From IMG/VR virus record IMGVR_UViG_2687453563_000005: DNA of 22,967 nucleotides; one strand, written 5' to 3'. This DNA comes from a virus (Duplodnaviria; Heunggongvirae; Uroviricota; Caudoviricetes). Both the position numbers and the translations under genes were made by a program. Every line of letters starts with the position of its first letter. The stretch's first letter is position 1. Below the pieces are notes generated by a model. The model made no database searches. It saw only the letters and a program-made list of their open reading frames with translations, and was not told the DNA's origin. This document shows, piece after piece, positions 1-21,599 of this stretch.

Positions 1-753
1 TTAGATTCCCTGGTGAGTAAGAATTTTACTTTCTGAACTCCTCTGAGAGTATTGACTTGGAGAAACACCAAAATAACGTCTAAATACATAAGTAAAGTAT
101 GAGACACTGGCATAACCACAGACCTTAGCTACTTTACTAATAGGATAACAACGAGTGCTGAGTAAATATTCAGCCATTTGCATCCTCTCATCAAGTAGGA
201 TCTTACTGAATGATACCCCCTCTTCTTTCAATTTCCTCTTTAGTAAACTTTCGCTGAGATATAATCTTGATGATATATCCTTAAGATGCCATGGTGCAGA
301 TAAATCCGTATGAATAATCGTTTTAACTTTAGCCCCTGTGCTTTTCAAACATCCAAACAGAAATACTCCAAATTGTTTTTCAGAAGAAAATGCAGAGAGA
401 CATGTAAAAGCAATAGACTCATCAAAAATTTCTATATATTCAGCACAGTGATTAGCCCAACTAATTAATCCTTTAATTAAACTGAAGTCAGCAAAGTTTA
501 TTTTTAAATAAGATGGATATTCCCTACAATCAGAAATATCCCTTAAGTTATTAGCTTTCAAATAGCGACTAATAAACTCAGCGCCAAAATCCGCCACTAT
601 CACTCTTTCAGGATATGTCAGGAAAAAATCTCTATAGCTAGAGTCGACAAGTACAGATAAACCTCTATCCAGAAACACACTCTCTTTTCCGAAATAAACA
701 TCAAAGGACTCCAAAATCAATATAACTGAACATGTAGTTGCCATATCATCCAC
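1..753 (-). CDS. AraC-family transcriptional regulator, AppY/GadX-like, complete 250 aa; AT-rich gene
   Basis: C-terminal AraC-type HTH region (WHLKDIS...SESLLKRKLKEEGVSFSKILLDERMQMAEYLL...SYFTYVFRRYFGVSPSQY) resembles prophage/virulence AraC regulators such as AppY; TAA stop at 1..3; visibly AT-rich. Confidence 0.8.
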   Translation of the reverse strand: MDDMATTCSVILILESFDVYFGKESVFLDRGLSVLVDSSYRDFFLTYPERVIVADFGAEFISRYLKANNLRDISDCREYPSYLKINFADFSLIKGLISWANHCAEYIEIFDESIAFTCLSAFSSEKQFGVFLFGCLKSTGAKVKTIIHTDLSAPWHLKDISSRLYLSESLLKRKLKEEGVSFSKILLDERMQMAEYLLSTRCYPISKVAKVCGYASVSYFTYVFRRYFGVSPSQYSQRSSESKILTHQGI

Positions 754-1186
754 CCAATTTAACTGAAACCAGGATGAAGTATATGCATATAAAGTTCACT
801 CTGCCAAACTTCAGTATAAAAAACCACATAAAAAATAGGGTGTGATAAAAAATACCGTAAAAATAAAGCAAAGGATTATAAATTCCGTTACAGTTACAAA
901 TGATACTAAAGAAACAATTCCTTAGAAAACCTTATTTACAGCCAATAAGTAAGACACTTATATGATATCAAGTTTTCATAAAACATAACTAGGCTAAATA
1001 GCTGCGCCTAATACCGCTACACTTTTGCCAGCCCATGTTTGCCTCCGGGTATTGACCCCTTCTCTACGCAACTTCAGTTCCCACCACCAACTTTGCGGCA
1101 GCTTTGTAGGATCAATGTCTAAAAGAATAATGGTGACCGATAAGAAAACGACTGAATAACTGCAGATTTTCGGTAATGACTCCAAC

Positions 1187-1690
1187 TTATTGATAGTGTT
1201 TTATGTTCAGATAATGCCCGATGACTTTGTCATGCAGCTCCACCAATTTTGAGAACGACAGCGACTTCCGTCCCAGCCGTGCCAGGTGCTGCCTCAGATT
1301 CAGGTTATGCCGCTCAATTCGCTGCGTATATCGTTTGCTGATTACGTGCAGCTTTCCCTTCAGGCGGGATTCATACAGCGGCCAGCCATCCGTCATCCAT
1401 ATCACCACGTCAAAGGGTGACAGCAGGCTCATAAGACGCCCCAGCGTCGCCATCGTGCGTTCACCGAATACGTGCGCAACAACCGTCTTCCGGAGACTGT
1501 CATACGCGTAAAACAGCCAGCGCTGGCGCGATTTAGCCCCGACATAGCCCCACTGTTCGTCCATTTCCGCGCAGACGATGACGTCACTGCCCGGCTGTAT
1601 GCGCGAGGTTACCGACTGCGGCCTGAGTTTTTTAAGTGACGTAAAATCGTGTTGAGGCCAACGCCCATAATGCGGGCAGTTGCCCGGCAT
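1187..1690 (-). CDS. insB: IS1 InsB frame (made as InsAB' fusion by -1 frameshift)
   Basis: 167 aa translation ...[61 protein letters not shown]... is IS1 InsB; overlaps insA as expected. Confidence 0.85.
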
Positions 1691-1884
1691 CCAACGCCAT
1701 TCATGGCCATATCAATGATTTTCTGGTGCGTACCGGGTTGAGAAGCGGTGTAAGTGAACTGCAGTTGCCATGTTTTACGGCAGTGAGAGCAGAGATAGCG
1801 CTGATGTCCGGCGGTGCTTTTGCCGTTACGCACCACCCCGTCAGTAGCTGAACAGGAGGGACAGCTGATAGAAACAGAAGCCAC
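1609..1884 (-). CDS. insA: IS1 InsA (transposition inhibitor / N-terminal part of InsAB' transposase)
   Basis: 91 aa translation [43 protein letters not shown]... is the InsA zinc-finger/HTH protein. Confidence 0.9.
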
Positions 1885-2103
1885 TGGAGCACCTCAAAAA
1901 CACCATCATACACTAAATCAGTAAGTTGGCAGCATCACCAGATTTTCGCTCGAAACCTTCCTGTCAGATCCATAGCGAATCAAGTGCTGAATGTCACAGT
2001 ATCGAACAGAAAACAGTGACGATCTAACCCTTCAAGAATATTCTACGATTGTTCTGTTTAGGAAAAGCAAGGCGGGAAGTCGGGAGATAAGTCATTGATA
2101 AAG

Positions 2104-2169
2104 TGGCGGAGAGAGGGGGATTTGCCCCCCCGGTAGAGTTGCCCCTACTCCGGTTTTCGAGACCGGTCC
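2104..2169 (-). other. Degenerate 3' fragment (~66 nt) of a tRNA-Ser (serU-like) gene; probable att-site relic, not a functional tRNA
   Basis: Reverse complement reads ggaccggtctcgaaaaccggagtaggggcaactctaccgggggggcaaatccccctctctccgcca: anticodon-stem to CCA end of a long-variable-arm tRNA-Ser, but the T-loop TTCAAAT is changed to GGCAAAT and the 5' part is absent. Confidence 0.5.
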
Positions 2170-2303
2170 AATCATCAAACGAAACATAAAATTAGCTCAC
2201 ATTATGAGGAAAAGTATCTTTTATGTACTATGTAAATTCAAAGGCTTAGCCTCATTTCTCCGATGGTTTTCTCAACACTACTGGTTGTGAGCCCTTGCAA
2301 TGA

Positions 2304-3122
<819 letters not shown>

Positions 3123-3141
3123 GTCTTTAAGTGATAAGCAT

Positions 3142-3189
3142 AAACCGCAGCACGTCATGCATACGTCGTGTCTGCGGTTTTTCTTTTTT
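3142..3189 (+). terminator. Rho-independent terminator-like hairpin after the GIY-YIG gene
   Basis: aaaccgcagcacg...cgtgtctgcggttt imperfect stem followed by tttttctttttt. Confidence 0.5.
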
Positions 3190-3374
3190 GCTTACACGGT
3201 GTCTGGTTCTTCTGGCCACTCAATATCAGGTGCAGTTGATGTATCAACACGGTTCAGCAACACCCGATACTTTTTCCATGCGGCCAGTAACGCTTTCTCT
3301 TCCTCCGTTGCGATTTCCAGCTCAACAACAGTCTGAACGTACCGGGAACAGCCTCCTTCAGAGCTTGAAGGATA

Positions 3375-6300
3375 TCAATGTTCGCTTCCTGTTAACTGCC
3401 CGACAAGTGCAACCAGTTCGCTTACCTGATTTTCCAGAGTGGTGATCCGGGTGCCTGCTGTTGCCAGATTTTGACGTAGCGTTGTGTTTTCCTCTTCCAG
3501 CGCGGTAACGCGATCATCTGTTTCACGGGCGACCTGAACAAGTAAGCCCGTCACGGCGGCGTAGTCAACATTCAGATAACGCGTTTCTTCACGTAATTCA
3601 TTGCCGTCAACCGTTGGTCCCTGCAACTCTTTACCGTAATGAGTGAATGAGCCTACCGCTTCCGGTATTGCCTCCATTGCTTCCTGTGCAATAACACCAG
3701 CGTAAGGCAGTCCGTTTTCCTTAAGTGTGTAGGTGTACCCGTTCATTTTACGGATAGCTTCGGTTGCGTCACTGATAATCTGAATATTGTCTTTCAGCTC
3801 GCGGTCTGATAACTGATTCAGTGTTGTACAGTTAATAGCACCGTTTACATCAAACAGCTGACCTGACGATGTTTTTTGAGCATAAAACAGATACGCGGCA
3901 GTCGTTCCAACCTCAAAAACGTTTTGTCGATCACCTGAACCCCACACCTTGACAGCAAATGGTAGTTCTGTATTACCTAAGTTCTGTAAAACAAAACGAT
4001 TGCCAGTCCCTGTTTGTTTTGTAAGGGTTAAATCAACAGTTGAGTTAACCTCATCCTTGTTGATAGTGAGCGCCTGCGCTGTAGCCCCGTTAACAGCACC
4101 TGTTTTGAGTTGAACCGCGCCGTCATTACCATTTAGCAGTATCTCAGCTCCGCTAAAGAAATTTTTTAGCGATAGCATCTTACTTACGCCGACTGATGAA
4201 CCCAACGCCCACGCGAGAGAATTACCGGTGCTATCAAACCCACGTACAAAGCAATCCATTTTGCTATAGTCTGACGTGCTTCCAAGGACATCAATCCGCC
4301 CTCCGCCAGATTTTATCGGGTTAGATGTGGTTAATGACCTGACAGCAATATCGGTAGATGAATTGAGATCGTCTACTGTTAGTAATTTCTTCCATTCCTG
4401 CGTCGTTCCATTTTCAATTGTTCTTCCCCAAAAACCGGAATTGCGGCCTCCGAACTGCACAGCATAATTTTTACTAAATTGAACATGAATGCCGCCAAGA
4501 ACCATAGAGCCTGCCGGGCCGTTTGTACTGCCTGCAATTGATCTAAATTTGTCGACGTTATCAGTATGCTGAGCGTTCCAGTCATGACCTGTTAATGTTG
4601 CAATTCCTGAGTTAGCTGTAATTAACCCAGACGCTTTAAGATTCTGCACATCAATTCTGTCGTTTGCGAAATTATATGCAATTGCGTTACTAACGCTTCC
4701 GGCATCATCATAATCGCGTTTCTGAATAAACCAGTCGCCAGCATTAGCAATGAGAGTATAAGTAGGCGTGTTAGCCGGGCGATCTGTTTCATTAAATCTT
4801 ATTGCTGGGTTAGCGCTCCTTATTTGTAAAGGTTTTTCAACCGTTGATTTCAGTATCGCACTATCTACAATTAAATTACCTTCTGAATTAAGGTTTAGAT
4901 ATTTTGAAGCACCAGTTGAACCATCGTATGTAAACCTTATTGTTAATTGACCTGGCTCATTTGATAAAGTTTCAACATACATATCAGCACCAAGACGCAC
5001 AGTGCTGTCAGTTGCTAACAGTCTTGTATGGAGAATTCCACTAGATGTGTATGTATTGGTCGAATCACTATATCTATCAAGAAATAGACTGTTAAGTTGA
5101 GGGCTGTTGTTCCTACCTAAGCCAAGATTCGTTCTGGCACCATCAACAGTTGCCGCATTAGTGCCTCCTTGTCCAATAGGTAATGGAACCCATGACGATC
5201 CGTTATGGCAACCCCACAATCCAGATGTTGACACCTGAAGTCGTGGCGCTGATGGTGAGTAATTCGAATAAACGTAAGTAGTCGATTCGCCTTCTTCAAT
5301 TCTTTCTGTTAATACTATTTTTTTCCATACACTCCAACCTTGTGTGCTGGTATATATCCTTCTATAAAGAATTGATGAATTGTTATATACAAAATAGCTC
5401 TGGATACAACCATCACTACCATTAGCACCAGTTCTTTGCACTAACAATGCACCAGCAAGCTGTATCGGGTAATTTAGTTCTGGCTTTGCGTTGGCAGACA
5501 TTGGTTGGTAATAAAAACCGGCTGTAGTACCTTTTATATCGTTTAAGTTCGTATTCGCATCAAGGCCAGTTTTTGCTTCAAACATGACTTCAAGTTTAGA
5601 GCGCGCTGTACTTGCATCATTCGCCCCTGTGCCACCTTGCGCAACTGCGAGCGGTTGCCATCTACCAGCTTTAGGGTTAAATGCGCCCCACTGACCGTCA
5701 GCATCAACCTGTAAGTAACAGCCGTCCGCCTGAACGTCAGTAGATAAAATGATGGTTCTTGTGTCGCTTGAACGCTGAAATCGGATAACCTCATCTTTTC
5801 TTGCGTGGCGTGTCCATTGCGGGCCTATTGTCGGATTCCAGCGATAAGTATAAAGCGAGCGCGTAGCCCATCCCTGAAATACACCTGTATACGCTGGTGT
5901 TCCATCTACCTGACTAATAAACCCCGTAAGACTGCTTTCACCGGATGCAATCGATGGAAATCCTTTTGCATTACTCATAATGCGCATAAATCCGATATAC
6001 CCTGATGGGTTGCCGGAAATATCAGGACAATCACGCGGGGCTGAGCCAAGACCGATATTATCGCCAACAATTAATTGCGCCTGGTTGCGATAATTAAGTG
6101 CGTCCGCCGCAGATTTCGCCGCGTTTGTTTCACTGGATTTAGCATTAGTTTCGCTGGCTTTAGCGTTTGTTTCGCTGCTCTTTGCTGCTGCCTCGCTATT
6201 TTTCGCGTTGGTTTCTGATTTTTTGGCTGCTGTCGCGGAGTTTGCCGATGCAGTTTGTGAGTCTGCTGCCGCCTGTGCGCTGTTACCCGCAATATAAAGG

Positions 6301-7082
6301 CGTCCGTCCTGCATCTGCTGCAGCTTCACTGCCCACATGCTGTTCAGGTTATTATTTGTATCAACCTGAACCTTCTGTATCTGCTGGATCGCTGCACTCT
6401 GGTCTTCCAGTTTCTTATTGACGGTCTGTGTTATTTCATTGCTGACATCCGTTATGGACGTCCTGATTTCAGTCAGGTCAGGCGCAAGCTGACCGTTATC
6501 AATCTGCGTCCACAGCTCCTGAGCCAGATGGGTTTTCCCTATCCGGATATTAAACGGGCGCGGCGGCAGGTTATCCACCACCACCGAGGCCAGATACTGC
6601 GAGGTGGTTTTGCCCTTAATGGTGATGTCTTTTTCCGTCACCCAGCCACCATTACGCTGTATCTGAACCAGCAGGCGAACTTCCGACGGATTCCGGTCCC
6701 CCTTTGAGGTGGTTTCCACCAGTGCCTGCACGCCGAAGGTAAAGCGCAGACGGTCGATGTTTGCAGACGTAATGGTGCGGGTGATCGGCGTGTCATATTT
6801 CACTTCCGTACCCAGCACCGTCTCGGAGCCGGAGGATTCAAACCCCTCCGGCGGTGTCTGCTCCTGCTCACCGGCACGGAACACCACCGTGACACCGGAG
6901 ATGTTGGTATTCCCCTCAGTGTCCAGCACCGGCGTACTGTTCAGCAGCTCGCTTTTTAATCCATCCACCGGACCTTCAACCGGCCCTTCGCTGATGGCAT
7001 CGATCACACTCAGCAGCTGCGTGGACTTCAGGTTGTCCTTCGCTTCGCGCGGGGTATGCCCCTTACTGCTGCCTTTACCCAT
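3375..7082 (-). CDS. Mosaic tail fibre protein (1235 aa): lambda J-like N-terminus, short J C-region segment, Stf-like SETNAK repeats, fibre domain, C-terminal S74-type intramolecular chaperone
   Basis: Starts MGKGSSKGHTPREAKDNLKSTQLLSVIDAISEGP... (lambda J N-terminus as recalled); then MWAVKLQQMQDGRLYIAG (J C-region-like); AAKKSETNAKNSEAAAKSSETNAKASETNAK repeats; C-terminus ...SDRELKDNIQIISDATEAIRKMNGYTYTLKENG... typical of autocleaving chaperone domain. Confidence 0.8.
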   Translation of the reverse strand: MGKGSSKGHTPREAKDNLKSTQLLSVIDAISEGPVEGPVDGLKSELLNSTPVLDTEGNTNISGVTVVFRAGEQEQTPPEGFESSGSETVLGTEVKYDTPITRTITSANIDRLRFTFGVQALVETTSKGDRNPSEVRLLVQIQRNGGWVTEKDITIKGKTTSQYLASVVVDNLPPRPFNIRIGKTHLAQELWTQIDNGQLAPDLTEIRTSITDVSNEITQTVNKKLEDQSAAIQQIQKVQVDTNNNLNSMWAVKLQQMQDGRLYIAGNSAQAAADSQTASANSATAAKKSETNAKNSEAAAKSSETNAKASETNAKSSETNAAKSAADALNYRNQAQLIVGDNIGLGSAPRDCPDISGNPSGYIGFMRIMSNAKGFPSIASGESSLTGFISQVDGTPAYTGVFQGWATRSLYTYRWNPTIGPQWTRHARKDEVIRFQRSSDTRTIILSTDVQADGCYLQVDADGQWGAFNPKAGRWQPLAVAQGGTGANDASTARSKLEVMFEAKTGLDANTNLNDIKGTTAGFYYQPMSANAKPELNYPIQLAGALLVQRTGANGSDGCIQSYFVYNNSSILYRRIYTSTQGWSVWKKIVLTERIEEGESTTYVYSNYSPSAPRLQVSTSGLWGCHNGSSWVPLPIGQGGTNAATVDGARTNLGLGRNNSPQLNSLFLDRYSDSTNTYTSSGILHTRLLATDSTVRLGADMYVETLSNEPGQLTIRFTYDGSTGASKYLNLNSEGNLIVDSAILKSTVEKPLQIRSANPAIRFNETDRPANTPTYTLIANAGDWFIQKRDYDDAGSVSNAIAYNFANDRIDVQNLKASGLITANSGIATLTGHDWNAQHTDNVDKFRSIAGSTNGPAGSMVLGGIHVQFSKNYAVQFGGRNSGFWGRTIENGTTQEWKKLLTVDDLNSSTDIAVRSLTTSNPIKSGGGRIDVLGSTSDYSKMDCFVRGFDSTGNSLAWALGSSVGVSKMLSLKNFFSGAEILLNGNDGAVQLKTGAVNGATAQALTINKDEVNSTVDLTLTKQTGTGNRFVLQNLGNTELPFAVKVWGSGDRQNVFEVGTTAAYLFYAQKTSSGQLFDVNGAINCTTLNQLSDRELKDNIQIISDATEAIRKMNGYTYTLKENGLPYAGVIAQEAMEAIPEAVGSFTHYGKELQGPTVDGNELREETRYLNVDYAAVTGLLVQVARETDDRVTALEEENTTLRQNLATAGTRITTLENQVSELVALVGQLTGSEH

Positions 7083-7142: not shown

Positions 7143-8069
7143 TCAGCGACCAATCACCACAACCTGACCACCGTCCCCTTCGTCTGCCGTGCTGATCTCC
7201 TGAGAAACCACGCGAGACCCCACGCGCATTTCCCCGTACAGAACAGGCAGAACATTGCCCTGGGCAACCATGTTATCCAGTGAGGAGAAATAGGTGTTCT
7301 GCTTACCGTTATCCGTTGTCTGTGTACGGGGAGTTCTGGCTTTCGGTGCCAGCATCTGCGCCACACCACCGAGCACCATACTGGCACCGAGAGAAAACAG
7401 GATGCCGGTCATACCACCGGTCCCAATGGCTGCCCCCCATGCTGCAAGGGTGGCTCCGGCGGTAAAGAATGATCCGGCAATGGCGGCAGCCCCCAGGACA
7501 ATCTGGAATACGCCACCTGACTTGGCCCCGGCGACTCTGGGAACAATATGAATCACAGCGCCATCAGGCAGAGTCTCATGTAACTGCGCCGTTAATATGT
7601 GCTGTTTGAGTTGACTTTCTTTTGCCGCATAGCCGTCACTTTTGCCGCGATATGGCCCCTGGTAATGTTCAGCAAACAGAACGCGTTCTGTTGCGGGAAA
7701 ATATGCGCGCAGACTTTCTTTATTACACCCGTTCCATCGTCCGGACGGCTTCGCCCAGATAATATGGTTAAGAACGTTGAAACGTTCACGCATCATGATC
7801 TCGATATCAGATGCGAGGCGATGTCCACAGAACAGGTAAAGGCTTCCGGCAGGTTTCAGCACCCGCCAGAACTGAGCCAGACAGTGGTCCAGCCACTTCA
7901 GGTAATCTTCGTCCCCTTTCCACTGATTGTCCCAGCCGTTGGGTTTCACCTTGAAGTACGGCGGATCGGTAACAATCAGGTCAATGGAATCATCAGGCAG
8001 GGACTGAATAAAATGCAGGCAATCAGCGTTGATTAAATCAACACTGTTTATTTTTACAGTATTTTTCAT
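7143..8069 (-). pseudogene. In-frame chimera: N-terminal fragment of a DNA N6A/N4C methyltransferase (~160 aa, DPPY motif) fused to C-terminal ~145 aa of lambda-like tail assembly protein I; junction near 7590
   Basis: N-part has IVTDPPYF and post-motif-IV region but no downstream FxGxG SAM motif; C-part TAQLHETLPDGAVIHIVPRVAGAKSGGVFQIVLGAAAIAG...VVVIGR matches lambda gpI C-terminus as recalled; lies immediately upstream of the J-like gene as I does in lambda. Confidence 0.65.
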
Positions 8070-8685: not shown

Positions 8686-10017
8686 ATGTTAGATACACTA
8701 TCTTTCACTGAACGTGACGAGTTCCAACGAAGAAACATCGCTGAAAATATCATCAAGTTGCTAAAACCAGAGGCAGACATTTCACCACTGGTAATAGACG
8801 GCGCATGGGGAACAGGGAAAACAGAATTTAGTATCAAACTGAAAAATCTCATTATTGAGCAAGAAACTGAATCTAAAGTTGTTTATATTGATGCCTTTAA
8901 AGGGGATCATGCAGAATCTCCATTACTTCTCATAACCTCTGCAATTGCCAGCATTTTGCCTGAGGAAGAAAAACAACACTTCATTAAGAGATCTCTTCCT
9001 GCAATTCGCTTTGGTTTAAAAACGGTACTAAAAGCTGGTGCAGGTTGGTTTTTACGACAGGAGGCTAGTGAAGTTGCCGAAGAATTCCAAGATGCGATGA
9101 AGAAAGCAAGCAATGCAGCAATAGATGGGACTATTGAAAATTTGCTTGAAGACCATATGGACTCAGAGAAAAACATAAATTCACTTAAATCCTGCATCGA
9201 AAGCATATCAAAAAATCAAAAAATCGTAATTATAATTGATGAATTAGACCGATGTAAGCCGAGTTTTTCAACAAATGTCATTGAAACAATAAAACACATT
9301 TTTGACATCAATAATGTCTTTTTTATTTTAGTTACAAACACAGAACAATTAAAAGCATCTATAAATCATATTTATGGTTATAGCATTAACTCACAAAAGT
9401 ATCTTGACAAGTTTATAAAATATACCATCACGCTTCCAGATACATGTTTGATAAATGGTCACAACGTATGTAAAGCCTCTGTTATATATTGGGATTACCT
9501 TGTAGAAAAAACAAGGTTATTGAATAAAATCAATAGATTATCAGGTTACTTTATCCGTGATTTAATTCAACGAACCAACTTATCATTACGTGAAACACAA
9601 ACATTTTCACGCAATCTTAACATTTTCCAACTGTTAAACGACGATGAGAACAAAAGCAGTGATCCTTTAATAAATATGATCTTTGTCGTAGCTGCCTTCA
9701 TACATTGCTTTGGTAACAAGGAAAAACTAAAACAAGAAATTACCGCTGAATCTATATCTTATTTAGCAGACCTGCTTAACATAAAAGAAATACCTTATTC
9801 TTATGAGAGAAGATCGCAAATCCCTGAAATATCGATTGTATTCTTCGGAATAATTAAAGACAGTATTACTCTTAATGAGCGATTTGCCCCTAAAAGTGAT
9901 GAAGAACTTAAAAAATTCACAAATGTTTATACTGATTATGAACACATAAATTTTTGGAGTACTACACCCAGAGAGTTATTGATAAAATATATTAATCAAA
10001 TGTCATTCATCCAGTAA
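8686..10017 (+). CDS. KAP-family P-loop NTPase (443 aa), AT-rich, apparently soluble
   Basis: Walker A GAWGTGKT near residue 40; Walker B-like VIIIDELDRC near residue 185; composition far more AT-rich than flanking phage genes; opposite strand to the Q operon. Confidence 0.8.
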   Translation: MLDTLSFTERDEFQRRNIAENIIKLLKPEADISPLVIDGAWGTGKTEFSIKLKNLIIEQETESKVVYIDAFKGDHAESPLLLITSAIASILPEEEKQHFIKRSLPAIRFGLKTVLKAGAGWFLRQEASEVAEEFQDAMKKASNAAIDGTIENLLEDHMDSEKNINSLKSCIESISKNQKIVIIIDELDRCKPSFSTNVIETIKHIFDINNVFFILVTNTEQLKASINHIYGYSINSQKYLDKFIKYTITLPDTCLINGHNVCKASVIYWDYLVEKTRLLNKINRLSGYFIRDLIQRTNLSLRETQTFSRNLNIFQLLNDDENKSSDPLINMIFVVAAFIHCFGNKEKLKQEITAESISYLADLLNIKEIPYSYERRSQIPEISIVFFGIIKDSITLNERFAPKSDEELKKFTNVYTDYEHINFWSTTPRELLIKYINQMSFIQ

Positions 10018-16523: not shown

Positions 16524-16855
16524 GTTGAATACTCAGCTAGTTGTTGGGGATATCCAGATTAACCAAATCCTTGTTGTTGGGGAATAACTAGGTCCACCTC
16601 GCCTGATGTGGCTAAAAGCAGGCACATAACAGCTAAGTATTTTCAACCAGAGAGAATCCTTAGCGTTGTGGTGAATGCGGCTCAGCGCACGCGGGTTAAG
16701 GTTGAGGCTGACAGTCGACCTTCTGTGGATACCCACCCGCCTGGTGTGCAACCTTCGCCAGGCACCGGGAGGCACCCGGCACCACAACTTTATGCTGTGT
16801 GTAGTCCTCGCGGTACCAGTTTGTACACTTGCTTCCGGCTGGTACCGCTCTTTTT

Positions 16856-16944
16856 ACAAAACAGAGAAGAACATCACCGGACGACGGGCTCATAACCCAA
16901 TCCATCCGGGCGGCTGCCACCGCAGGTGTTCTTCTCTGTTTTGT
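16856..16944. repeat. 18-bp perfect inverted repeat (acaaaacagagaagaaca / tgttcttctctgttttgt) enclosing ~53 bp; a second 9-bp inverted repeat (cggtaccag/ctggtaccg) lies just upstream at 16811..16848
   Basis: Read directly from the sequence; located about 50 nt upstream of the YfdP-like start. Confidence 0.6.
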
Positions 16945-20119: not shown

Positions 20120-20469
20120 TGGAGCCATACAGCCTCACACTCGATGAGGCCTGTCATTTTCTCAAGATATCCAGACCGACTGCCATTAACTGGATACGCA
20201 CAGGGCGTCTTCAGGCAACACGCAAAGATCCCACTAAGAATAAATCTCCTTACCTCACAACACGACAAGCCTGCATTGCGGCTCTTCAGTCTCCGCTGCA
20301 TACTGTCCAGGTGAGCGCGGGTGATGGCATAACAGAGGAAAGAAAATGTCACTCTTCCGCAGAGGTGAAATATGGTACGCCAGTTTCACATTGCCGAACG
20401 GTAAAAGATTTAAACAGTCTCTTGGAACAAAGGACAAAAGGCAGGCGACAGAACTCCATGACAAGCTAA
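20119..20469 (+). CDS. xis: Excisionase (AlpA/Xis-family HTH), ~116 aa
   Basis: [34 protein letters not shown]; resembles P22 Xis as recalled; 3' end overlaps int in another frame. Confidence 0.75.
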
Positions 20470-21509
20470 AGGCTGAAGCATGGCGGGTCAGCAAACTTGG
20501 TGAAATACCTGATATAACGTTCGAGGAAGCGTGTGTCAGGTGGCTTGAAGAGAAAGCACATAAAAAATCACTGGACGATGACAAAAGCCGGATCGGATTC
20601 TGGCTTCAACATTTCGCAGGAATGCAACTAAGAGACATTACTGAATCAAAAATTTATTCAGCAATGCAGAAAATGACGAACCGGCGTCATGAGGAAAACT
20701 GGAAACTCAGGGCAGAAGCATGCAGAAAAAAAGGGAAACCTGTTCCAGAATACACGCCAAAACCAGCGTCCGTTGCAACGAAGGCTACGCATCTTTCATT
20801 TATAAAGGCCCTACTAAGAGCCGCAGAGCGTGAATGGAAAATGCTGGATAAGGCACCAATTATTAAAGTGCCTCAACCAAAGAATAAACGGATCCGCTGG
20901 CTGGAGCCCCATGAAGCACAAAGGCTGATTGATGAATGTCCGGAGCCATTAAAGTCTGTTGTTGAATTTGCACTGGCAACAGGCTTAAGACGCTCGAACA
21001 TCATCAACCTTGAATGGCAACAAATAGATATGCAGCGCCGGGTGGCATGGATAAACCCAGAAGAGAGTAAATCAAACCGCGCAATCGGCGTTGCGCTGAA
21101 TGATACTGCATGTCGCGTTTTGAAAAAACAAATCGGGAATCATCACCGTTGGGTATTTGTGTACAAGGAAAGCTGTACCAAACCAGACGGAACGAAAGCG
21201 CCAACAGTAAGGAAGATGCGGTATGACGCAAACACAGCCTGGAAAGCGGCGCTGAGACGGGCTGGTATTGATGATTTCAGATTTCACGACTTGAGACACA
21301 CCTGGGCAAGTTGGCTGGTTCAAGCCGGAGTCCCGTTGTCAGTGTTACAGGAAATGGGAGGCTGGGAGTCTATCGAAATGGTTCGTCGATATGCTCACCT
21401 TGCACCTAATCACCTTACCGAACACGCACGGCAAATAGACTCGATCCTGAACCCATCGGTCCCAAATTTGTCCCAGTCAAAAAATAAGGAAGGTACTAAT
21501 GATGTGTAA
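20346..21509 (+). CDS. int: Tyrosine integrase, P22-Int-like (387 aa)
   Basis: N-terminus [48 protein letters not shown] and catalytic HDLRHTWAS...RRYAHL motifs; GAGGAA Shine-Dalgarno; next to thrW, the P22 attachment site. Confidence 0.9.
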
Positions 21510-21523
21510 CTTATTGATTTAAA

Positions 21524-21569
21524 TGGTGCCGATAATAGGAGTCGAACCTACGACCTTCGCATTACGAAT
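21524..21569. other. Probable att core overlapping the 3' portion of thrW; extent approximate
   Basis: Integrase 3' end lies 15 bp from the tRNA 3' end; P22-type att cores overlap the tRNA 3' part by about 46 bp; partner copy not found in the window. Confidence 0.4.
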
Positions 21570-21599
21570 GCGCTGCTCTACCAACTGAGCTATATCGGC
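21524..21599 (-). tRNA. thrW: tRNA-Thr (anticodon CGT), thrW
   Basis: Reverse complement gccgatatagctcagttggtagagcagcgcattcgtaatgcgaaggtcgtaggttcgactcctattatcggcacca folds as a 76-nt cloverleaf with CGT anticodon and CCA end. Confidence 0.9.

Follow-up and report, generated by a model that had tools for sequence, protein, structure and literature searches.

The window analysed in this study (22,967 nucleotides of IMG/VR virus record IMGVR_UViG_2687453563_000005, Caudoviricetes) carries a lambdoid prophage whose integrase adjoins the tRNA gene thrW. Near the other end of the window, past the tail-fibre genes, lies the 3' part of a different tRNA gene, serU. This raises the questions of whether the serU-like fragment marks the distal end of the element and how DNA of one attachment site came to lie in a prophage integrated at another. 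Displaced tRNA 3' copies, capture of host DNA of the specialised-transduction type and mosaicism of integration modules are all textbook features of temperate phages. The features of the left-hand part of the window that bear on these questions are as follows.

1–753, minus strand: gene of an AraC-family regulator, part of a mobile block; annotated as such in relatives.
994–1049, plus strand: terminal 56 bp of an IS630-family element; 98% identical to positions 1501–1556 of locus L011, the end of an IS630-family copy.
1050–1171, minus strand: captured yodB-serU spacer, distal part; 94.3% identical to K-12, with a SNP haplotype specific to the fossil copies.
1172–1939, minus strand: IS1 of 768 bp that splits the captured spacer; an IS1A transposase is annotated in an identical relative.
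1940–2103, minus strand: captured yodB-serU spacer, proximal part, directly 3' of serU; 98.3% identical to K-12 over 1939–2169.
2104–2169, minus strand: 3' 66 nt of serU (anticodon arm, variable arm, T arm, acceptor 3' strand and CCA); 64/66 identical to K-12 serU.
2170–2348, plus strand: phage arm (179 bp) of the fossil attR, the upstream region of the GIY-YIG gene; about 99% identity at 100% coverage in MB15 and RMDEC332, and also found in PM4.
2349–3122, plus strand: gene with a LEM-3-like GIY-YIG domain (Pfam PF22945, E = 2e-14), b-region cargo beside the fossil.

The reverse complement of window positions 2104–2169, GGACCGGTCTCGAAAACCGGAGTAGGGGCAACTCTACCGGGGGGGCAAATCCCCCTCTCTCCGCCA, matched nucleotides 25–90 of K-12 serU, which encodes tRNA-Ser(CGA), at 64 of 66 positions without a gap, the reference being the annotated tRNA-Ser of the K-12 locus (L002). 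The sole two mismatches were adjacent, a change of TT to GG at T54 and Psi55 in the T-loop. The anticodon loop of the fragment was CGA, its 3' end was CCA, and the 5' 24 nt of serU, comprising the acceptor 5' strand and the D arm, were missing. The earlier note had described a minus-strand, serU-like 3' part with a CCA end, two T-loop substitutions and no 5' half, and the alignment bears this out. The remaining E. coli tRNA-Ser genes shared only 44–47 of the 66 positions with the fragment, so that the assignment to serU exceeds chance by far.

No tRNA gene was called at this place by standard tools. ARAGORN, run on the whole window, reported thrW only (21524–21599, minus strand) and no tRNA at 2104–2169, and Rfam gave no tRNA match over 2104–2169 at gathering score. 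In E-value mode, Rfam returned a tRNA-Sec match of 22 bits on the fragment, which is below threshold. The absence of a call by either program is what a chance resemblance or a low-complexity artefact would give. Such a reading can be dismissed, however, given the 64/66 match to serU together with 278 bp of flank at 94–98% identity (E = 1e-113) and the much lower scores of the other tRNA-Ser genes. Another sub-threshold Rfam match, to the family "Plastid-psbI-rps4 3'UTR", was found at 2107–2158 on the plus strand (31.8 bits, E = 7e-5); it is most likely an artefact, the model resembling an antisense trnS/tRNA-Ser.

With only nucleotides 25–90 present, the fragment cannot form a complete cloverleaf, and the invariant T54-Psi55-C56 is altered in the T-loop of the window from GGTTCAAATCC to GGGGCAAATCC. 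As far as sequence can tell, no tRNA function is plausible for the relic. The T arm also varied among its sister copies. Among 30 copies in IMG/VR, the wild-type TT was found in 17, GT in 2 and GG in 8, while 2 had a 1-nt deletion in the C run and 1 had an IS186 insertion. TT was kept in the genuine serU attR copies of MB15 and PM4, and the anticodon stem-loop was intact in all fossil copies compared. From this decay series it follows that the GG of the window is a late, lineage-specific change that arose without tRNA constraint. The relic decays neutrally. The copy with the insertion (L022, IMG/VR 2537561945_000005) contained CATAAGCGCTAACTTAAGGGTTG, which we take to be an IS186-like end, about 310 bp past the IS630'/spacer junction described below and inside the fossil T arm. 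Its insertion point lay within a GGGGG-N7-CCCCC stem-loop. IS186 prefers targets flanked by G/C, with which the site in L022 agrees.

The DNA on the 3' side of the fragment was also derived from the serU locus. Window positions 1939–2169 were 98.3% identical to positions 4001–4231 of the K-12 locus L002 (E = 1e-113), and positions 1050–1172 were 94.3% identical to positions 3888–4010 of the same locus. The flank of the fragment is the 278-bp yodB-serU spacer, colinear with the K-12 DNA immediately 3' of serU, where 278 bp is the length of the captured flank minus the IS1 and one copy of its target duplication. A 173-bp query that included the serU-proximal 164 bp of the spacer was present in 5398 of 5426 complete E. 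coli genomes. The IS1 is bordered by an 8-bp target duplication, AGATTTTC, at 1164–1171 and 1940–1947. It was absent and the spacer was uninterrupted in EC21Z-078, O157:H7, ev099 and mEp332. Its insertion is a late, secondary event. The possibility that IS1 had joined the serU flank to the thrW island was considered and rejected, as the element is a simple insertion with an 8-bp duplication and is missing from EC21Z-078, O157:H7 and the phages.

At its distal end the spacer runs directly into the last 56 bp of an IS630-family element. The inverted repeat of this remnant, CTAAATAGCTGCGC, points to the AraC side and recurs at L011 2603–2617; the break lies within the element, 56 bp from its end, and marks the start of the host spacer. 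The junction reads TTTGCCTCCGGG up to the point of fusion and TATTGACCCC beyond it, and the string TTTGCCTCCGGGTATTGACCCCTTCTCTAC represents it. It was identical in all copies examined, namely those of the relatives, ev099, mEp332 and 30 IMG/VR contigs, and had no match among the GTDB species-representative genomes. Moreover, the SNPs within 60 bp of the junction were common to all fossil copies and missing from the chromosomal copies. The identical junction and the haplotype found only in the fossil copies point to a single capture event. Because it coincides neither with an att site nor with the end of an insertion sequence, the fusion is best read as an illegitimate capture junction.

Comparison with genuine lysogens of serU identified the fragment further. 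A chimeric query, in which K-12 yodB and the complete spacer were followed by window positions 2104–2700, matched the true serU locus of MB15 and RMDEC332 from end to end at 98.6–98.9% identity, and PM4 had the same junction at serU as MB15. The GIY-YIG proteins at the serU attR of PM4 and in the relatives of the window share one protein accession, WP_000355482.1. The order in MB15 is yodB, spacer, serU', GIY-YIG gene, complete prophage, integrase, three ORFs, intact serU and mtfA. WP_044325874.1 of MB15 is an example of a serU-type Int. When aligned with the attB of K-12, the duplication at attL and attR of MB15 extended from GGACC to CCACT, which is about 68 bp, and the identity block started in the 5' strand of the anticodon stem. 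Save for the TT/GG difference, the window fragment and its right-hand arm are identical to the serU attR sites of MB15 and PM4. The fragment thus equals the block that is duplicated at both ends of the MB15 prophage, and it is flanked as an attR should be, by a phage arm on its 5' side and by 278 bp of chromosomal DNA from downstream of serU on its 3' side. Its position is different: the relic is found between paoD/yagP' and thrW-proA rather than at serU, without a partner attL and without a cognate integrase. By these alignments the fragment is a genuine serU attR, the non-functional fossil of a temperate phage that integrated at serU.

Two other origins for the serU-derived DNA were evaluated against the same lysogens. 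The first, that the 278-bp flank is a long stretch of attP homology carried by serU phages, was rejected, as the attL of MB15 leaves the host spacer 2–3 bp past the CCA. This divergence limits the identity of the phage attP to about 68 bp. The second derives the fragment from a phage-encoded tRNA-Ser gene whose 5' part was lost. Phages of this group do carry tRNA genes, such as those for tRNA-Gly, -Thr and -Arg in SerU-LTIIb, and tRNA-Ser is annotated over weaker matches in several phage records. However, their tRNA genes are located near the Q/lysis region and not at the end of the b-region, the 5' limit of the fragment coincides with that of the att identity block in genuine serU lysogens, and the 278 bp on its 3' side are the chromosomal flank of serU, all of which makes this origin extremely improbable.

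Variation was also observed around the serU arm itself. In PM4 (L013 5779–6284), the stretch from zinT to the serU attR had no annotated yodB, and the match to the spacer began 447 bp from serU, which suggests a deletion on the yodB side of the serU prophage. In two loci where the GIY-YIG arm occurs away from serU DNA (L009 and L010, at about 3975–4000 in each), the arm still ended in GGACCGGTCTCAAAAACCGCAG, of which 20 of 22 positions were identical to the serU anticodon arm (window 2147–2169), followed by unrelated sequence. One of these prophages is at ssrA and the other at thrW beside a lipase gene. Their GGACCGGTCTCAAAAACCGCAG end has the appearance of a degenerate attP-type core that stayed behind in the b-region.

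Whether the fossil attR is also the boundary of the resident element depends on the attachment site at thrW, for which two features of the right-hand part of the window are needed.

20346–21509, plus strand: tyrosine integrase of the SfIV/P22 type, belonging to the resident element; 100% identical to SfIV Int and 90% to SPN9CC Int, with the Pfam domain Phage_integrase.
21506–21569, minus strand: identity block at the int-proximal junction of the thrW prophage, made up of 46 nt of the thrW 3' end and 18 bp downstream; exact 64-bp copies are in L001, L003 and L015.

The integrase adjoins thrW (21524–21599, minus strand), which is followed by proA. The earlier statement that a P22-like integrase sits at thrW holds, the protein being identical to the Int of Shigella phage SfIV and 90% identical to that of the P22-like SPN9CC. 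Within the window the thrW 3' end occurred only once, as the earlier note had also reported. The search beyond the window, in contrast, located the partner. The 64-bp repeat, GTAACTTATTGATTTAAATGGTGCCGATAATAGGAGTCGAACCTACGACCTTCGCATTACGAAT, recurred 490–553 bp to the left of window position 1, as read in three related genomes (L001 17518–17581, L003 18286–18349 and L015 1501–1564), where it lies between yagP' and an IS3 remnant. L001 and L015 were 100% identical to the window over all shared parts, and L003 was identical over window positions 1–1172 and 99.7% identical over 1939–3500. The placement of the left-hand repeat is taken from these relatives, the best coverage of the window in the genome collection being 73%. 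As the repeat is found beyond the AraC block and not at 2104–2169, the serU relic is located about 2.6 kb inside the thrW prophage and not at its end, contrary to what the earlier note had proposed; the partner had been missed because it is just outside the window. About 0.78 kb of this distance is due to the later IS1, and the AraC regulator and IS remnants occupy the interval between relic and repeat.

It could still be argued that the fragment is the true distal boundary, created by chromosomal recombination, through an inversion or translocation, between a thrW prophage and a serU prophage, and that a serU attR is now the terminus of the element. The relic is indeed a genuine serU attR with host flank, and the early region (yfdP/Q/R, cI, cro, ymfL and DUF4222) is common to the window prophage and the serU prophage of MB15, so that homology for an exchange exists. 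Against this, in the relatives the partner of the thrW repeat lies about 2.6 kb beyond the relic, the host flank gives way to the IS630 remnant after 278 bp instead of continuing to yodB, and the neighbours of thrW are in K-12 order, with paoABCD-yagP' to the left of the element and thrW-proAB-phoE to its right. In addition, the 173-bp flank query matched the chromosome of the relative WCHEC020031 at a second place, presumably its own serU locus, and the entire block is present in phage genomes that carry lambda int. A boundary at the fragment is contradicted by these observations and very unlikely. The gene order at thrW, the second flank copy and the occurrence of the block in phages mean that no chromosomal rearrangement is needed. 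The suggestion that the relic implies either a hybrid of two elements or a rearrangement accordingly stands in its first part, in that a second att event of the serU type took place, and falls in its second, the thrW locus being collinear with K-12. A double inversion between prophages resident at thrW and serU was likewise considered and rejected, on account of the second flank copy in WCHEC020031, the collinearity of thrW with K-12 and the presence of the block in free phages.

The fossil attR and its host flank were found to be part of a shared block, IS3'-AraC-IS630'-spacer-serU', which is about 1.65 kb long without IS1. Its outer limit is an IS3 remnant, 235 bp inward of the thrW repeat, and its inner limit is the serU core. 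In the lambdoid phages ev099 (47,224 bp) and mEp332 (46,206 bp), window positions 3–1172 and 1939–2165 were contiguous at about 98% identity, so that host sequence is joined to a hybrid att site in both phages. The order in ev099 is xis, lambda Int, lambda attP core, IS3 remnants, AraC, IS630', spacer, serU' (62 nt) and tail-fibre genes. The lambda attP core of ev099, GCTTTTTTATACTAA, is at L006 2825, directly after int. The use of the serU core as attP by ev099 was rejected, given its lambda Int and the position of its lambda attP core. In the phage search, the spacer and fragment were also matched in PhiR70_1. The AraC regulators of ev099, mEp332, O157:H7 and the IMG/VR contigs were 97–100% identical to that of the window in amino acid sequence. 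In O157:H7, the same block is in a prophage remnant adjacent to thrW, and the AraC part of the block was present in 644 of the 5426 complete E. coli genomes. The context of the block was inspected in about 6 of the several hundred genomes that hold it.

PatE (z0321), a regulator of acid resistance and of the LEE, is located on OI-8 (PMC10877973, a review). The AraC gene at 1–753 is probably an orthologue of PatE, as suggested by that review and by its position in O157:H7 only. In O157:H7 6535WT, a P4-like satellite lies directly outside the AraC/IS3' block (L005 1–11036). Its genes include those for an integrase, a polarity suppression protein, an ogr/Delta protein, a primase-helicase and an ABC-three-component defence system. 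A 47-bp thrW repeat follows at L005 11198–11244, and the satellite and this repeat together indicate tandem elements at thrW.

On the left of the junction, the block was associated with at least three integrase types: the lambda type, the SfIV/P22 type and a relative with 55% identity (IMG/VR locus L021). The window integrase and the lambda-type Int of ev099 had about 20% identity over a local match of 159 amino acid residues. In the window, the SfIV/P22-type Int was the only integrase, and none of the serU type was found. The resident integrase is unrelated to the serU relic.

On the right of the junction, the same capture junction was followed by three arms, which are the GIY-YIG type, an O157 variant of the GIY-YIG type and the LT-IIb/ev099 type. 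All started 61–66 nt from the CCA end, which is the 5' edge of the serU-derived block. Two of the three recur at genuine serU attR sites: the GIY-YIG type in MB15 and PM4, and the LT-IIb type in the prophage KU052038 (SerU-LTIIb), whose attR arm resembles the one beside the fragment in ev099 and mEp332 and whose annotation contains a 62-nt tRNA-Ser pseudogene beside yodB. Together with the intact anticodon stem-loop of all copies, these arms raise the possibility that the 344 bp of serU-derived DNA still act as a portable homology patch or attB-like site, at which phages with the block swap their tail-fibre and cargo arms with serU prophages. Such an exchange could be homologous or mediated by the Int of serU phages, and a phage that targets serU could also integrate into the fossil. 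If so, a captured att scar would drive the exchange of host-range modules, including those of O157:H7. However, inheritance from different attR donors would give the same arm boundary, the SNPs in the 344 bp are too few to map crossovers or points of arm exchange, and the window holds no serU-type integrase. Continued activity of this DNA is thus a tentative and rather doubtful proposal. It is a functional extension of the explanation favoured here rather than an alternative to it.

That explanation, for which we estimate a probability of roughly 0.82, is that a fossil serU attR and 278 bp of captured host DNA lie in the non-essential stretch between the tail fibres and the int/att module of a lambdoid thrW prophage with a P22/SfIV-type integrase. 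The proposed sequence of events is as follows. A phage whose attP carried about 68 bp identical to the serU 3' end first integrated at serU, as the comparison with genuine lysogens shows, and in doing so placed the displaced host 3' copy beside its tail-fibre/GIY-YIG arm on the yodB side. One illegitimate recombination would then have linked a point in the spacer 278 bp away from serU with internal sequence of an IS630 that was carried by a phage beside AraC, by which the attR and its host flank became phage DNA. This step may have occurred by aberrant excision of the serU lysogen, of the type known from lambda bio, which is the simplest route, or by exchange with an infecting or co-resident phage. 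The block of about 1.65 kb subsequently spread among lambdoid phages, as its present distribution shows, probably with integration modules being exchanged on its left and tail-side arms on its right. Finally, one phage with the block integrated at thrW and decayed there; in the lineage of the window, IS1 entered the captured spacer and the T-loop changed from TT through GT to GG.

The arrangement seen today would result from aberrant excision, from recombination of a phage with a prophage resident at serU, or from the capture of a longer stretch that was later shortened by deletion. The AraC/IS3' part may be either phage cargo or a host islet. As to the relic itself, its sequence would still allow a residual role, either as a substrate for recombination or as a serU terminator acting on late read-through.

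serU is a known site of prophages and islands (PMC9729726, PMC7545054), among them the Stx1d prophage "serU-yodB" (PMC9729726). In the literature searched, serU was described as such a site and this relic was not. Similar to the displaced tRNA 3' copies at serU prophages, such as Stx1d "serU-yodB" and SerU-LTIIb (KU052038), the relic starts in the 5' strand of the anticodon stem, runs through CCA, lacks a 5' half and has the sequence block and phage arm of a genuine serU attR. Different from them, it is neither at serU nor at the edge of an element, has no partner attL or cognate integrase and is carried in phage genomes that use other integrases. A further displaced tRNA 3' copy is ptwF of K-12, at the end of CP4-6.

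The relic also resembles the products of aberrant excision in lambda bio and lambda gal, where a hybrid att site and contiguous host DNA are found in packaged genomes, as they are in ev099 and mEp332, and where the far end of the captured DNA is likewise an illegitimate junction. Here, however, only 278 bp of non-coding host DNA were kept, the junction is inside an IS630 remnant, and the lineage that carries the captured DNA is replication-competent, circulates in nature and took up other int/att modules later; the excision event is a reconstruction. The exchange of int-attP cassettes of the lambda, P22/SfIV and other types among lambdoid phages offers a third comparison, as the same b-region block was found beside lambda int/attP in ev099, beside SfIV/P22-type Int at thrW in the window and beside the 55%-identical Int of IMG/VR L021. 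In this case a readable scar of an earlier att site has survived with its host flank, which is usually not preserved.

The relic is thus a natural case in which an att scar and the adjacent host DNA were captured once and now circulate in lambdoid phages and in prophages of E. coli, including O157:H7. No new mechanism is involved; it is a well-resolved example of ordinary but tidy phage mosaicism. Such a relic can mislead programs that call prophage boundaries or predict att sites from tRNA genes, as it misled the earlier reader on the end of the element. The identical junction is in turn a handy lineage marker for the b-region module that carries the probable acid-resistance regulator PatE.

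The remainder of the window is that of a decayed prophage. Window positions 3375–7082, to the right of the GIY-YIG gene, contain a tail-fibre-assembly remnant and a J-type tail-tip/fibre gene, and a decayed lambdoid early region extends between the tail genes and the integrase. No head or terminase genes were found in the window, from which it follows that the prophage is defective. In an ORF at 7143–8069 on the minus strand, an N-terminal DNA methylase domain is followed by the C terminus of lambda tail assembly protein I, and the ORF is evidently a deletion junction. The gene at 8686–10017 on the plus strand, opposed to the neighbouring phage genes, encodes a KAP-family P-loop NTPase (Pfam E = 9e-71), which could be defence-type cargo. 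In the prophage early region, a match to the Rfam family STnc100, a gammaproteobacterial sRNA, was found at 16635–16857 on the plus strand, with a score of 49.1 bits against a gathering threshold of 47 bits.
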